21,887 nucleotides of DNA from a virus (Duplodnaviria; Heunggongvirae; Uroviricota; Caudoviricetes): IMG/VR virus record IMGVR_UViG_2534681878_000037. One strand, 5' to 3'. Position numbers: made by a program. Shown piece by piece: positions 12,001 to 18,000 of the stretch. Each line of letters starts with the position of its first letter. The first letter of the stretch is position 1.

Positions 12001-15000
12001 GCGAAGCCACGTGTCTCTGTCATGAGTAAACTTGCGTTGGCTCTTGGAGTATCAGCTTCATATCTAGAATATGGTGTTGGAGATAGAGAGGAATGTAAGG
12101 AAATGGCAAGCATCCCCAATCCAACAAAGCCCGATGTATACAGGATAGAAGTTTTGGATCTTAGCGTTAGCGCAGGACCTGGGACCTATATGCTTTCAGA
12201 CTATGTTGATGTGCTCTACGCCATTGAGTTCACAACTGAACATGCCCGTTCTCTTTTCGGAAACCGTTCTCAGAATGATATAAAAGTTATGACGGTAAAT
12301 GGAGATAGTATGTCCCCAACTCTTGTTTCCGGGGATCGATTGTTTGTCGACATTTCCGTTCGCCACTTCCAGACTGATGGAGTTTACTCTTTCGTTTACG
12401 GTAAGACTTTCCATGTTAAACGTCTACAAATGCAAGGCAACAAACTAGCTGTTCTTTCGGATAACCCCGCCTATGAGAAATGGTACATTGATGAGAAGTC
12501 GCAAGATCAGCTTTATGTTATGGGTAAGGCACTGATTCATGAGTCGATTAAATATAATCGACTTTAATTAGGCATCTAGCAATCGTTAAAGCAAACGAGC
12601 ACAGATGATAAAAGATAAGGATAGAAAATCTTTATACAAATTTTATTTGGCACATTGGTCCATAAAAATGGATTAACACTGAGCTGTTACCCTAAGTAAG
12701 AAAAGATAAAGACCATATGTTATCTTTGGGTGCGTTACTAACACAAAAAAAACCAAAATAAAACATAAATAATAGACAATTCTATACAACAGGATACGAT
12801 AATGATTAATGAACGTACTGAAGCGACAGATGGGGTAGCAGATATGATTTCCACCAATACAAAATATTTAGTATGGAACAACAAAGGTGGTGTAGGAAAA
12901 ACTTTTCTTACATATAATCTTGCCGTTGAGTTTGCTATATCTCATCCGGATCAAGATGTTGTGGTTATTGACTCATGCCCTCAATCAAACGTTTCAGAAA
13001 TTATTCTTGGTGGCAATGGTACCGGGGAAGAAAATCTAAATAAATTGCGAGACAGAAATGTTACAATCGCAGGTTATATCAAGGAGCGTTTTAGCAAATC
13101 TCCTTTGTCTCGTTTAGGAAATGAATCTTCTTACTTTGTACGAGCCCATGATGTTAATGCAAAAATGCCAGAGAACTTATATATTCTTCCTGGTGATGTC
13201 GATCTTGATATCTGTTCACGCTTAATATCTCACATTGGCTCATCCCCAGTAAAAGAAGCATGGAAGAAAAGCCGATCTTTGCTGGTAGATCTAATAGCAT
13301 CTTTTGAAGCCGATAAAAACATTTCTGACAGAGCAAAAACATTTTTTATTGATTGTAATCCAAGTTTTGCCAGCTACACAGAATTGGGAGTAGTCGCGGC
13401 AAATAGAATAATTATCCCTTGCACTGCCGATGCTGCATCAATTCGCGGAATAAAAAACCTTGTTAAACTTATTTATGGAGTGTCTATTGACAAGTCAGAA
13501 CAAGATGAAATGTTCTTAGATTTCAACAAAGAAGCAAAGCAAAACCTTATCGAACTACCTGAACTACACCTTTTCGTACAAAACCGCTCAAGAACTAATG
13601 AAAGTGATGCAGCAAAAGCATTCAAATCACATGCAGAAGAGATCAAAAGAATCACGGATGACCTGTTAAATACACATCCTCATCTGTTCACAAATGTGGC
13701 TACTGAACCGCCCCGGAAATCCTGGAGACTAAACTCCCTGAGAAAGAGGTAAACAGGATGACTAAAAATACTCGTTTTTCCCCCGAAGTCCGTCAGCGGG
13801 CGATTCGTATGGTTCTGGAAAGTCAGGATGAATATGACTCACAGTGGGCGGCAATTTGTTCCATTGCCCCAAAGATTGGCTGTACGCCGGAGACTCTGCG
13901 TGTCTGGGTTCGCCAGCATGAGCGGGATACCGGGGGCGGTGATGGTGGGCTCACCAGCGCTGAACGTCAGCGTCTGAAAGAGCTGGAACGTGAAAATCGT
14001 GAACTGCGCCGCAGTAACGATATCCTTCGCCAGGCTTCCGCTTATTTTGCGAAGGCGGAGTTCGACCGCCTCTGGAAAAAATGATGCCACTGCTGGATAA
14101 GCTGCGTGAGCAGTACGGGGTCGGACCGGTATGCAGCGAACTGCATATTGCCCCGTCAACGTATTACCATTGTCAGCAACAGCGACATCATCCGGATAAA
14201 CGCAGTGCCCGTGCGCAGCACGACGACTGGCTGAAGAGAGAGATACAGCGCGTATACGATGAAAATCATCAGGTGTACGGTGTGCGTAAAGTCTGGCGTC
14301 AGTTGTTACGGGAAGGAATCAGGGTGGCCAGATGTACAGTGGCACGTCTCATGGCGGTTATGGGACTTGCCGGTGTTCTCCGGGGTAAAAAGGTCCGTAC
14401 GACCATCAGCCGGAAAGCCGTTGCCGCAGGCGACCGCGTAAACCGTCAGTTCGTGGCAGAACGACCTGACCAGCTGTGGGTGGCTGATTTTACTTACGTC
14501 AGCACATGGCAGGGCTTCGTCTATGTGGCGTTTATCATTGATGTGTTTGCCGGATACATCGTGGGGTGGCGGGTCTCATCGTCTATGGAAACGACATTCG
14601 TGCTGGATGCGCTGGAGCAGGCGTTGTGGGCCCGTCGTCCGTCTGGCACCATCCATCACAGCGATAAAGGCTCTCAGTATGTGTCACTGGCCTATACGGA
14701 GCGACTAAAAGAAGCCGGATTACTGGCATCAACAGGGAGTACAGGCGACTCGTATGACAACGCGATGGCTGAGAGCATCAATGGTCTTTACAAAGCGGAG
14801 GTAATACACCGTAAGAGCTGGAAAAACCGTGCAGAAGTGGAACTGGCCACACTAACGTGGGTGGACTGGTATAACAATCGACGATTGCTGGGAAGGCTGG
14901 GCCATACTCCTCCGGCAGAAGCAGAAAAAGCTTATTATGCTTCCATCGGAAACGATGATCTGGCAGCCTGAGTTCACAGATAAAACACTCTCCAGGAAAC

Positions 15001-18000
15001 CCGGGGCGGTTCACTACTTTCGAGAGAGTTCAAAATGTCAAAGATGGTAATACTCTTGCAGCAATAATAAACCATGAGGGATGCCCTTTAAGTAGGCTGC
15101 AGCATAAGAGTTACACTATCTATGGTATGGCGACCCAAGCTAATAGAGCACAAATTGAAGCACTAGAATCTGATGTTTCAACAGTAGTCAAGTGTCTGTA
15201 ATACAATAACCATGATTTAGAACGAACATAATTCTCGCCCGACCAACCGGTCGGGTTTTATACTCGTAGCCTGCTTAATAACACTGTTCCTGACCCGTTG
15301 TATCCATAGTTCCCACTATTTTCCCCCAAATTATTACTATCTAATTAACCTAATAATTAAACCAAAACAAAAGACACTCGATATTTTCTATACGTAACTA
15401 CGCCACATCACCCCATCTGTGAAAAACCTTTTAATTCATAACGTTATATAGAAAACTAAAAATTAAATACACACTTCTACTTTTTGTTGTTGATTTTTGC
15501 TACTTTTAGTAGCATCATTATCTGAACAAACAACAGACTGTTGTTAACGAAAGGTTGGTTGTAACACGGCGTATGGCACATGCGTCGTTAGCGGTCTGGG
15601 GACGTTAAAGGGGACAATCCACTCCTTGCTCGGGCAAACAAACCAGGTAGCCGGAATGTGCAAGTCAATGAGGATGCTGATAAGACGCCTAACCAGCGTG
15701 GCGATTCGGTTTGACGCCTGGGAAGAGACCAGGACGCAACGATGAGAGCATTGACGAGCAAGGCATAAGTGCTGGTTCAATTCCAGACAGTCCCATTCAG
15801 ATGGGAGGGTTGGGCAGGGAAAAGGTCCGTTCGATTCGGACACCGGCAATGCTATCAGCGTTGTGGTGAATGCGCAGGCTGATGCGCGAAAGACATTGCA
15901 GCTATTGCGGAAAAGAGCTGTTCGGCGGGGCAATCAAACGCCCGTGAGAGTCTGAAATAACCGCAAGCCGGAGATCAGCACCGGTCACCACAACAGCCAC
16001 TGCTTTGGCAGTACCAGTTTGTACACTTGCTTCCGGCTGGTACCGCTCTTTTTACAAAACAGAGAAGAGCATCACCGGACGACGGGCTCATAACCCAATC
16101 CATCCGGGCGGCTGCCACCGCAGGTGTTCTTCTCTGTTTTGTGGAGAAACCAACCGACCTTGCAGGGTCGATATGATGAGGAGCAACAAAATGGCTAGCG
16201 AACGCAGTACTGATGTGCAGGCATTTATCGGGGAGCTGGACGGCGGCGTATTTGAAACAAAAATCGGCGCAGTTCTCAGTGAAGTCGCTTCCGGTGTGAT
16301 GAACACGAAAACCAAAGGTAAGGTCTCGCTCAACCTGGAAATCGAACCGTTTGATGAGAACCGTGTGAAAATCAAACACAAACTCTCATATGTTCGCCCG
16401 ACTAACCGCGGGAAAATTTCCGAAGAAGACACCACCGAAACACCGATGTATGTCAATCGCGGTGGTCGCCTGACTATTCTGCAGGAAGACCAGGGACAAT
16501 TACTGACTCTTGCCGGTGAACCTGACGGAAAACTACGCGCAGCAGGTCATTAATATCGTTCTTAATTAACTGATTATTTATCTCATCACTGAATATCTTT
16601 ATATAGTGAGGACTTATTATGTCTCAGAACTTAGACGCAACCGCAATTAATCAAATCCATGCCCTTATTTCTGCTCAGGGTGTTAATGAAATTATCAGTA
16701 AGATTGGTGCCGATGCTGTGGCATTGCCTGAGAATTTCCGCATTCATGATCTGGAAAAATTTAATTTAAATCGCTTCCGTTTCCGTGGTGCGCTTTCCAC
16801 TGCCAGCATCGATGACTTTACCCGTTATTCTAAAGATCTTGCAGATGAAGGCACCCGCTGCTTTATCGATGCCGATAATATGCGTGCCGTCAGTGTGCTT
16901 AACCTGGGTACTATTGATGAACCAGGTCACGCAGATAACACCGCCACTCTCAAACTAAAAAAGACAGCACCGTTTTCTGCTCTGTTGTCTGTTAATGGCG
17001 AGCGTAACTCCCAGAAGTCACTGGCAGAATGGATTGAAGACTGGGCCGACTACCTTGTGGGCTTTGATGCTAATGGTGACGCCATTCAGGCAACAAAAGC
17101 GGCTGCGGCTGTCCGTAAAATCACGATTGAAGCAAACCAGACCGCTGATTTTGAAGATAATGACTTCAGCGGCAAACGCTCCCTGATGGAGTCTGTCGAA
17201 GCGAAGACCAAAGACATTATGCCTGTGGCATTTGAATTTAAATGCGTTCCGTTTGAAGGTCTGAAAGAACGTCCGTTTAAATTACGCCTCAGCATTATCA
17301 CTGGCGATCGTCCTGTACTGGTTCTGCGCATTATTCAGCTGGAAGCGGTGCAGGAAGATATGGCTAACGAATTTCGTGATCTGCTTGTTGAGAAATTCAA
17401 AGACAGCAAAGTAGAAACCTTTATTGGTACTTTCACCGCCTGATTTCATTACTGCAAATGCCCCTGCGGGGGCATTTATGGAAACGTAATTAACTCAATA
17501 ATCACCGGATGGTGATGGCTTCCTTTTACCCAAACTCAGCGCGGTGCAGCGCATATGCGTGGAGAACAAAATGTCATTTATTAAAACTTTTTCCGGGAAG
17601 CATTTTTATTATGACAAGATAAATAAAGACGACATCGTGATTAACGATATCGCGGTTTCCCTTTCAAATATCTGCCGCTTTGCCGGTCATCTTTCTCACT
17701 TCTACAGTGTCGCCCAACATGCGGTGCTTTGCAGCCAGCTGGTGCCGCAGGAATTTGCTTTTGAAGCGTTAATGCATGATGCAACAGAAGCGTATTGCCA
17801 GGATATTCCCGCTCCACTGAAACGCCTTCTTCCTGACTATAAACGGATGGAAGAAAAAATAGACGCCGTAATCCGTGAGAAATACGGGTTACCCCCGGTT
17901 ATGAGCACGCCTGTGAAATATGCCGATCTCATCATGCTGGCAACCGAACGCCGCGATCTCGGGCTTGATGATGGCTCTTTCTGGCCAGTACTGGAAGGTA

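Follow-up and report, generated by a model that had tools for sequence, protein, structure and literature searches.

A complete copy of IS629 lies within a ParA-like gene of the window, i.e., the whole 21,887-nt stretch of Caudoviricetes DNA analyzed here, which derives from a lambdoid Stx1a prophage. We consider it very probable that this is a recent insertion, that it left a null or crippled allele of the ParA-like gene, and that the rest of the prophage is unaffected. The features on which this reading rests are listed in Table 1.

Table 1. Features of the interrupted ParA-like gene, the IS629 copy and the surrounding immunity module, in window coordinates.
Feature	Position	Strand	Remarks
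cro-like gene	11493..11756	-	Left of the OR-type operators
OR-type operator repeats (2 x CTACTTAAAATAG)	11789..11824	+	Between the cro-like and cI-like genes
cI-like repressor	11863..12567	+	Pfam HTH_3 and Peptidase_S24; directly upstream of the ParA-like gene, same strand
Truncated ParA-like ORF	12802..13752	+	316 aa; from ORF list, reconstruction and Pfam AAA_31/CbiA
Left CTAC copy (target-site duplication)	13700..13703	.	Abuts the left end of IS629
IS629 (IS3 family), complete	13704..15013	+	Exactly 1310 bp; same orientation as the ParA-like gene
IRL (left terminal inverted repeat)	13704..13728	+	25 bp; matches in extent the annotation "inverted repeat from left end of IS629"
orfA of IS629	13758..14084	+	108 aa, HTH_Tnp_1; open
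Programmed -1 frameshift region (predicted)	14039..14155	+	A6 slippery run at 14076-14081 and ALIL pseudoknot
orfB of IS629	14081..14971	+	296 aa, HTH_21 and rve catalytic core; open
IRR (right terminal inverted repeat)	14989..15013	+	25 bp; inverted repeat partner of IRL
Right CTAC copy (target-site duplication)	15014..15017	.	Directly after IRR
Displaced 3' remnant of the ParA-like gene	15018..15201	+	Codons 302-361 and stop
Intrinsic terminator of the cI/ParA-like unit	15237..15256	+	8-bp GC-rich stem followed by UUUU
OL-type operator CTACTTTTAGTAG within palindrome GCTACTTTTAGTAGC	15500..15512	+	Marks the PL region, right edge of the immunity module

The element is IS629, as indicated by its length, terminal repeats, reading frames, target duplication and near-identity to known copies. 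It has the termini expected of IS3-type elements (TGAACC...GGTTCA, beginning with TG and ending with CA), and 22 of the 25 positions agree between its two inverted repeats, without any mismatch in the first 13 bp (TGAACCGCCCCGG). Compared with the VT2-Sakai copy (AP000422.1), annotated "insertion sequence:IS629", 1309 of the 1310 nucleotides are the same, and the sole difference falls in IRR, at position 1297 of the IS (15000 in the window). The two elements also share the 25-bp repeats, the lengths of orfA and orfB, and the offsets of both the ORFs and the repeats; their 4-bp duplications differ, being CTTT in VT2-Sakai and CTAC here. Copies in Stx2a phages of O157:H7, e.g., PA4 and PA5, are 100% identical to ours. 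Hence, relative to the known IS629, IS1203 and IS1203v copies in O157:H7 prophages, the insertion site alone differs. In RefSeq, the element goes under "IS3-like element IS1203 family".

The coding capacity of the element is also that of IS629. The product of orfB matches Pfam rve (E = 9.3e-28) and NCBIfam transpos_IS3 (316 bits), and the ALIL frameshift pseudoknot is recovered by Rfam RF01497 with 121.5 bits (E = 1.5e-31, gathering score 50). To judge from the sequence, the frame layout is the one expected of IS629, with orfA and orfB overlapping in the -1 frame, a slippery run, and a structure downstream. The predicted OrfAB fusion has a computed length of 404 aa, and a 404-aa product is also called on the source contig. 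The boundaries, repeats, domains and similarity to the VT2-Sakai copy all agree with the first-pass annotation, which had described a complete 1310-bp IS629 with intact orfA and orfB. Because the sequence comes from a draft assembly and IS629 is multicopy, several copies may have been merged into one consensus for the interior of the element, which makes the intactness of orfA and orfB in the window copy uncertain.

The insertion site has the marks of a simple transposition. IS629 produces duplications of 3-4 bp (PMC3271280), and the CTAC duplication is of the size that it makes; a 4-bp match has a probability of ~0.004 of arising by chance. We removed IS629 and one CTAC in silico and searched for the resulting 1200 bp. 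This reconstructed empty site is matched at 100% in 10 complete E. coli genomes, and 68 genomes match across at least 80% of its length. The relatives have a single CTAC at this place, and the 100%-identical site is annotated as an uninterrupted 361-aa ParA family protein (WP_000606712.1), a length to which the frame of the reconstruction also reads through. This empty site is stronger evidence for transposition than the duplication itself. The event had initially been read as a clean, un-rearranged transposition, to be compared with IS-free alleles, and this comparison bears it out. IS629 is a common mobile element of pathogenic E. coli. The location is common for the element, since 62% of the IS629 copies of O157:H7 are within prophages or prophage-like elements (PMC3271280).

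One might argue that the junctions arose in assembly, through misplacement of a multicopy IS629 in a draft genome. The window indeed has the same sequence as a draft-assembly contig (AKLI01000048.1), such strains have many IS629 copies (PMC3271280), and the occupied site was found in no other genome or phage record searched. However, the two flanks are exactly contiguous at the empty site of the relatives, and the duplication is perfect and of a size typical of IS629 (PMC3271280). A mis-join would not yield a target duplication at one point of an otherwise collinear prophage. We thus judge an artefact extremely improbable.

The occupied allele is unique in the collections that we searched. Using megablast with a 2514-bp junction query, we found no place covered at 80% or more in 5426 complete E. 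coli genomes, and the occupied site was likewise absent from 50,697 phage records. All the 70 complete genomes with the ParA-like gene have it uninterrupted, at an identity of at least 99.6%. None of these 70 genomes shows an independent disruption, so nothing points to the gene having been inactivated repeatedly. Among contigs, at least 1000 encode an intact product and one a truncated product; the exact 316-aa protein (EIN87570.1, WP_000606711.1) is found on a single public contig, the source of the window. The closest prophage, the Stx1a prophage of FDAARGOS_293, is free of SNPs across the 4.1 kb right of IS629 and has 2 across the 12.6 kb on the left side. Such a small number of differences argues for a recent insertion.

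IS629 is inserted after codon 301 of a gene whose intact allele encodes 361 aa, resulting in the loss of 60 codons. The interrupted ORF comprises the native codons 1-301 (12802-13704), 15 codons read from IS629, and a TAA stop. The third base of codon 301 (ACT, Thr) is supplied by IS629, leaving the residue unchanged. The start codon of orfA (ATG) lies 5 nt past this TAA. The gene had been described as cut roughly 60 codons before its end, which the 361 and 301 residues confirm, and as extended by 16 IS-encoded residues. The tail is indeed derived from the IS but has 15 new residues, the figure of 16 being obtained by counting the unchanged Thr. The deviant Walker A motif is still present in residues 1-301, as is the greater part of the ATPase core.

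To assess what the gene has lost, we analyzed the conservation and predicted structure of the missing segment. This segment, the end of the gene that is best conserved, contains a block of invariant residues (K309, D310, N312, T313, L314, I317, N319, G322, Y333, Y336, T340, A342, Q346, I347 and L350), which is unchanging in two sets of homologues (31 and 42 sequences) from many phyla, down to 54% identity. Among the 80 loci listed, 72 match through residue 361. In the AlphaFold model (pLDDT 86.5, pTM 0.88), computed for the cluster representative P0001, which is 93% identical to the reconstruction, the elements located after the break are a strand (305-309), a helix (312-321), a hairpin (332-341) and a second helix (344-360). 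Searches with Foldseek aligned 343-360 columns to Soj, McdA, ParA and delta, with target-normalized TM-scores of 0.69-0.76 and a probability of 1.00. The correspondence between this C-terminal segment and the canonical ParA C-terminus is seen in fold-level alignments only. The lost C-terminus could not be placed on Soj by hmmsearch and hhalign, whose alignments end at around residue 223 (the Soj sequence used with hhalign may be inexact).

Loss of ParA-like function thus seems the most likely outcome of the insertion, because the 60 lost codons hold the invariant block and the last strand and helices of the predicted fold. The first-pass annotation had left the choice between inactivation and a truncated variant, and the deletion of the invariant block, of the last beta-strand and of the C-terminal helices favors the former. 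The 316-aa protein could instead be a functional or neomorphic variant, e.g., a dominant-negative or deregulated ATPase. The truncated ORF is open, and every conserved motif of its N-terminal and central parts, including NKGGVGKT, is still present up to residue 301. The break falls where conservation in the family is lowest, in a linker at alignment columns 301-312. Yet, it lacks 15 invariant and further near-invariant residues, and a strand of the predicted sheet together with the C-terminal helices. No comparable truncation is found elsewhere, the gene being of full length in 70 of 70 complete genomes, and the allele is on a single contig with no sign of selection. We therefore think that a functional variant is unlikely.

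By its motif and predicted fold, the interrupted protein is a member of the ParA/MinD (deviant Walker A) ATPase superfamily. Its deviant Walker A motif, with the signature lysine (N27-K28-G-G-V-G-K33-T34), is invariant among homologues. The protein shares this motif, the signature lysine and the ParA fold with the partition ATPases ParA, Soj, McdA and delta. In contrast to them, it is around 100 residues longer and its family has an invariant C-terminal motif of its own, KDGNTLAAIINHEG...YTIYG..TQAN. Its score against the NCBIfam model ParA_partition is 48.9 bits, for a cutoff of 180. The gene has no partner in the window, where it is flanked by cI and a terminator. When we clustered the neighbors of the 80 ParA-like loci, which come from many phyla, no family was present in more than 7 of them, and Pfam identified ParB_N in only 2 of the 105 nearest neighbors. 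We considered and rejected a bona fide partition ParA of the ParABS type, given the lack of a partner and the score below the ParA_partition cutoff. The label in PHROGs is a generic "ParA-like partition protein", and the closest solved sequence is 3pg5, an uncharacterized structural-genomics protein. Searches of the literature by accession and keyword found no functional report.

The gene had also been called a candidate exclusion gene, a name for which position is the sole basis. It lies between cI and OL/PL on the strand of cI, in a rexAB-like slot. This slot and orientation, downstream of cI, inside the OR...OL interval and followed by a terminator and OL/PL, are shared with rexA-rexB of lambda and the Stk kinase of 933W, which are accessory immunity-region genes that the prophage expresses. 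The ParA-like protein, a P-loop ATPase of the ParA/MinD type, is unrelated to these in sequence and fold. Compared with rexA-rexB, its exclusion role is that of a candidate by position. The sole match of the protein in PADLOC-DB v2 is at chance level (Drt5, E = 0.007, 13.6 bits). PADLOC and Pfam revealed 3 PD-T4-6-like kinases and 2 GmrSD in a heterogeneous set of 105 nearest neighbors. No defense-island context was found around the homologues, either in 4 contexts inspected by hand or across the 80 loci and 105 neighbors. Neither a significant PADLOC match nor a conserved partner or defense-island context was found to back the exclusion role, which is putative. The family is present in 418 species-level genomes of many phyla and, in lambdoid prophages of enterobacteria, occupies the rexAB-like slot, and it is conceivable, if rather doubtful, that this widespread orphan ParA family without a conserved partner is a new single-gene factor for prophage exclusion, defense or lysogeny maintenance.

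The insertion lies inside the immunity module. Where 0.03 occurrences of the operator motif CTACTTNNNNTAG are expected, the window has 3, namely two copies at OR and one at 15500. The cI-like gene corresponds in a near-identical prophage (L001) to an XRE family regulator of 234 aa. A scan revealed no terminator between the cI-like and ParA-like genes. The terminator beyond the ParA-like remnant has a folding energy of -15.4 kcal/mol (z = -3.8). In the unannotated region 15150-16300 we found no structured RNA, with no Rfam match at E <= 1 and no fold signal (z = -1.0), and the sequence conserved with other phages begins at 15545.

This arrangement bears on the earlier proposal that the outward end of the IS alters early-left transcription. 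The right end of IS3-family elements carries an outward-facing -35 element. Together with the orientation of IS629 toward the early-left genes, this would fit a mainly regulatory consequence, in which transcription entering the early-left (PL) operon is driven or altered from the right IS629 end. However, no promoter-like site is reported at the right junction, where a consensus scan found no promoter, and the best hybrid identified by eye is weak (TTCACT, a 15-nt spacer and CAAAAT). Any such transcript would meet 184 bp of gene remnant, then the terminator, and the OL/PL region controlled by cI is ~490 bp downstream. An effect of IS629 on the early-left operon is thus unlikely, because the terminator and the OL operator intervene and there is no convincing outward promoter. 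The proposal is not supported, and a regulatory effect as the main consequence seems highly improbable to us.

Disruption of the ParA-like gene, our preferred reading, would have proceeded as follows. IS629, a copy-out/paste-in element, would have recently entered the gene in the lambdoid Stx1a prophage, duplicating CTAC. The gene would then terminate 15 codons inside IS629, with its last 60 codons stranded without promoter or start codon. The likeliest result, given the conservation and predicted fold, would be a null or at best a crippled allele. Nothing appears to be co-transcribed beyond the ParA-like gene, which is followed by its own terminator, and cI, stx1 and the early-left operon would be unaffected. 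Lysogenic transcripts of cI and the ParA-like gene would enter orfA and orfB. Since they would do so, and since only 5 nt separate the stop of the truncated ORF from the start of orfA, it is plausible that transposase expression from the window copy could rise. It is also plausible that the perfect duplication would allow precise reversion in O157:H7-type hosts with the IS-excision enhancer. For comparison, IS629/IS1203v is subject to -1 frameshifting between orfA and orfB and to enhancer-driven precise excision, and stx2::IS1203v in STEC, which precise excision with the IS-excision enhancer restores, is likewise a simple insertion in a prophage gene whose duplications are intact, and thus potentially reversible (bioRxiv 10.1101/2023.06.07.543989). 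There the target is the toxin gene, whereas here it is an accessory gene without an assigned function.

The insertion is a real and strain-specific mutation, but an ordinary one: among the small structural polymorphisms of O157:H7-type E. coli, IS629 insertions in prophages are the commonest kind. As it disrupts an accessory gene without an assigned function, it is of little importance in itself. We do not expect changes in toxin production or inducibility, because stx1, the repressor and the lytic regulators are untouched. In practice, the insertion may serve as a strain-specific marker for IS629-based typing. It also provides a putative natural loss-of-function allele of an orphan ParA-like gene, with a near-isogenic intact prophage for comparison. 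If the family were to have a role in exclusion, defense or lysogeny maintenance, the IS629 allele would be a natural knockout beside the intact prophage of FDAARGOS_293 (2 SNPs in 16.7 kb).

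The element that interrupts the ParA-like gene of this prophage is a complete IS629, as proposed in the first-pass annotation: both of its reading frames are open and it is nearly identical to reference copies (see table). Its terminal inverted repeats agree at 22 of their 25 positions, perfectly so over the outermost 13 bp, TGAACCGCCCCGG. The frames of orfA and orfB overlap at ATGA, and a -1 slip on the last AAA would give a computed OrfAB fusion of 404 aa, which is also the length of a product called on the source contig. The copy is 100% identical to those of the O157:H7 Stx2a phages PA4, PA5, and others. 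It shares its length, 25-bp repeats, and ORF offsets with the element annotated as "insertion sequence:IS629" in VT2-Sakai; a single base in the right inverted repeat (IS position 1297) sets the two apart. In RefSeq this element is labelled "IS3-like element IS1203 family".

Features of the window discussed in the text
Feature	Position	Strand	Remarks
NanS-p-like esterase gene	1296-3242	minus	SASA + DUF6645; downstream of stx1; 648 aa in FDAARGOS_293
Anti-GcvB sRNA AgvB	3389-3448	plus	56.6 bits (gathering score 56)
STnc100 (Rfam sRNA)	3450-3663	minus	190.7 bits
stxB	3742-4011	minus	
stxA	4021-4968	minus	
Q, replication, cro-like genes	after stxA in window order	minus	
CTACTTNNNNTAG, two copies	11789-11824		between cro and cI
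cI-like repressor	11863-12567	plus	
Truncated ParA-like ORF	12802-13752		316 aa: 301 native + 15 from IS left end
CTAC copies	13700-13703; 15014-15017		flank the IS
IS629	13704-15013		1310 bp
Terminal inverted repeats	13704-13728; 14989-15013		25 bp each
orfA RBS AGAGG	13745-13749		
TAA of truncated ORF	13750-13752		between orfA RBS and orfA ATG (13758)
orfA	13758-14084		108 aa; HTH_Tnp_1
ALIL frameshift pseudoknot (Rfam)	14039-14155		121.5 bits (gathering score 50)
A6 run	14076-14081		
orfB	14081-14971		296 aa; -1 frame relative to orfA; HTH_21 + rve
Displaced codons 302-361	15018-15201		ParA-like gene
Intrinsic terminator	15237-15256		3' of ParA-like gene; -15.4 kcal/mol, z = -3.8
CTACTTNNNNTAG, third copy	15500-15512		

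Two 4-bp flanks match by chance with a probability of around 0.004; the decisive test of the target duplication is the empty site. When the IS and one CTAC are taken out of the window, the 1200 bp left have 100% identity with 10 complete E. coli genomes. Matches that cover 80% or more of this sequence occur in 68 genomes, and at every match the annotated "ParA family protein" gene is uninterrupted. The closest relative is the Stx1a prophage of the O157 strain FDAARGOS_293, where both flanks of the window meet on a single CTAC within a gene encoding 361 aa (WP_000606712.1). This comparison with IS-free alleles shows that the reconstructed frame agrees with the uninterrupted homologue and confirms a clean transposition with a 4-bp duplication. 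The initial observation and its main interpretation are correct. The insertion also fits the known behaviour of IS629, which generates 3-4-bp duplications and has 62% of its O157:H7 copies in prophages or prophage-like elements (PMC3271280).

The insertion is recent and strain-specific. The window has the same sequence as contig AKLI01000048.1 (assembly GCA_000267085.1). Compared with the FDAARGOS_293 prophage, the 12.6 kb left of the IS contain 2 SNPs, and the 4.1 kb on its right side contain none. The occupied site was found in none of the 5426 complete E. coli genomes searched, nor in the phage collection. The exact 316-aa product (EIN87570.1 / WP_000606711.1) is present in 1 contig and the intact protein in at least 1000; in all 70 complete genomes carrying the gene, it is in one uninterrupted piece, with at least 99.6% identity. 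There was no sign of recurrence or selection of the insertion among the genomes and contigs compared. Other shortened forms of the protein are found in public data and may be true truncations or fragments from contig ends: a 257-aa entry (P0047) stands for 92 member sequences, and two cluster members (P0125 and P0126) have 135 and 153 aa, at least the latter being labelled partial.

What does the truncation remove? The loss of around 60 codons had been correctly noted from the sequence, while the count of 16 IS-encoded residues was right to within one hybrid codon, the actual number being 15. A deviant Walker A motif (NKGGVGKT) is present in the ParA-like protein, which also matches the Pfam families AAA_31 and CbiA. 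In alignments of 31 and 42 family members with identities as low as 54%, the IS sits in the least conserved linker, and the segment downstream of it is among the most conserved parts of the family (consensus VKDGNTLAAIINHEG.PLS.L....YTIYG..TQAN..QI), with K309, D310, N312, T313, L314, I317, N319, G322, Y333, Y336, T340, A342, Q346, I347, and L350 invariant. An AlphaFold model of a 93%-identical cluster representative (pLDDT 86.5, pTM 0.88) places after the break a beta-strand (305-309), a helix (312-321), a hairpin (332-341), and a C-terminal helix (344-360). Sequence and profile alignments to Soj end at around residue 223; Foldseek, by contrast, aligns the model over 343 to 360 columns with Soj, McdA, ParA, and delta of pSM19035 (target-normalised TM-score 0.69-0.76), which indicates that the ParA fold extends to the end of the protein. 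Judging from conservation and the model, the 316-aa product most probably lacks part of the core and is non-functional. The first-pass annotation had left the choice between inactivation and a truncated variant; the loss of the invariant C-terminal block and of the final fold elements favours the former, and the IS629 allele of this accessory gene is probably null.

Within the window, a lambdoid Stx1a prophage, the motif CTACTTNNNNTAG occurs three times, for 0.03 expected, the third copy lying within a perfect palindrome, GCTACTTTTAGTAGC. We read these copies as putative OR and OL operators, which places the ParA-like gene within the immunity module, on the strand of cI and downstream of it, in the order OR, cI, ParA-like gene, terminator, OL. 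This is the position occupied by rexAB in lambda. A scan found no terminator between cI and the ParA-like gene. The outward end of the IS had been suspected of altering early-left transcription. Yet the scan finds no promoter at the right junction, and PL is separated from the right end of the IS by the 184-bp gene remnant, the terminator, and around 240 bp more up to OL (near 15500), making such an effect unlikely. It is more plausible that transcription is affected in the IS itself, as lysogenic transcripts would be predicted to run into orfA and orfB. Ribosomes translating the truncated ORF would terminate 5 nt short of the orfA ATG, and this IS copy might conceivably be activated through translational coupling or by read-through.

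Sequence common to other phages restarts at 15545. From there to 16190, between OL/PL and yfdP, around 645 nt have no annotated feature here or in relatives, are >99% conserved in several Stx2a phages and phage 1720a-02 (98% in mEp460), and reach a GC content of 0.55. This region, which has no Rfam match at E <= 1 and does not fold significantly (z = -1.0), may serve the early-left operon as a long leader. Elsewhere in the prophage, one of the 2 SNPs that set the left-hand 12.6 kb apart from the FDAARGOS_293 prophage (position 2103, TGG to TGA) is a nonsense mutation at codon 380 of the NanS-p-like esterase gene, whose 379-aa product keeps DUF1737 and SASA and lacks the C-terminal DUF6645 domain. 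Two sRNAs matched by Rfam models, STnc100 and AgvB (the latter scoring just above its gathering threshold), lie just downstream of stxB1. The window and the FDAARGOS_293 prophage diverge from around 19174, and their integration modules differ (19170-21887 in the window, 18910-20918 in FDAARGOS_293, and 19067-20951 in the compared locus L002). On the source contig a minus-strand integrase adjoins the exonuclease I gene (sbcB-like), whereas in FDAARGOS_293 a plus-strand integrase adjoins mlrA (yehV). The same Stx1a phage body thus occurs with two different int/att cassettes.

The family of the interrupted gene is large, with 1041 matches at E <= 1e-5 and relatives in 418 species-level genomes of many phyla (among them Proteobacteria, Planctomycetota, Verrucomicrobiota, Acidobacteriota, Firmicutes, Spirochaetes, and some archaeal MAGs). 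Identities of 54-67% between the E. coli protein and those of Campylobacter, Acinetobacter, and Azospirillum reveal unusually high conservation. The gene is solitary in the loci compared, distant homologues included, often with IS1595-type transposases alongside. The Aggregatibacter and Moraxella copies stand amid housekeeping genes, the Campylobacter one is within an integrative element, and the Azospirillum one has an IS1595 transposase beside it and is part of a type I restriction-modification island. Across 80 loci, each neighbour family occurs in at most 7, the commonest being transposases. The 105 nearest neighbours, analysed with PADLOC and Pfam, are heterogeneous: 5 IS1595 transposases, 3 PD-T4-6-like kinases, 2 ParB_N, 2 GmrSD, and otherwise housekeeping genes. 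With such mixed neighbours, the gene is best described as a mobile orphan, encoding a ParA-like ATPase that has no partner. The protein has no significant PADLOC match, its labels from PHROGs and NCBIfam are only generic ParA ones, far under the partition-ParA cutoff, and our literature search found no paper on it. The defence or exclusion role suggested at first is an unproven hypothesis, drawn only from the position of the gene.

The insertion of IS629 in a prophage of STEC is an ordinary and well-understood kind of event, and the expression of the toxin, immunity, and early-left genes is expected to be unaffected by it. Just one lead has some upside, namely the uncharacterised family of orphan ParA-like proteins.
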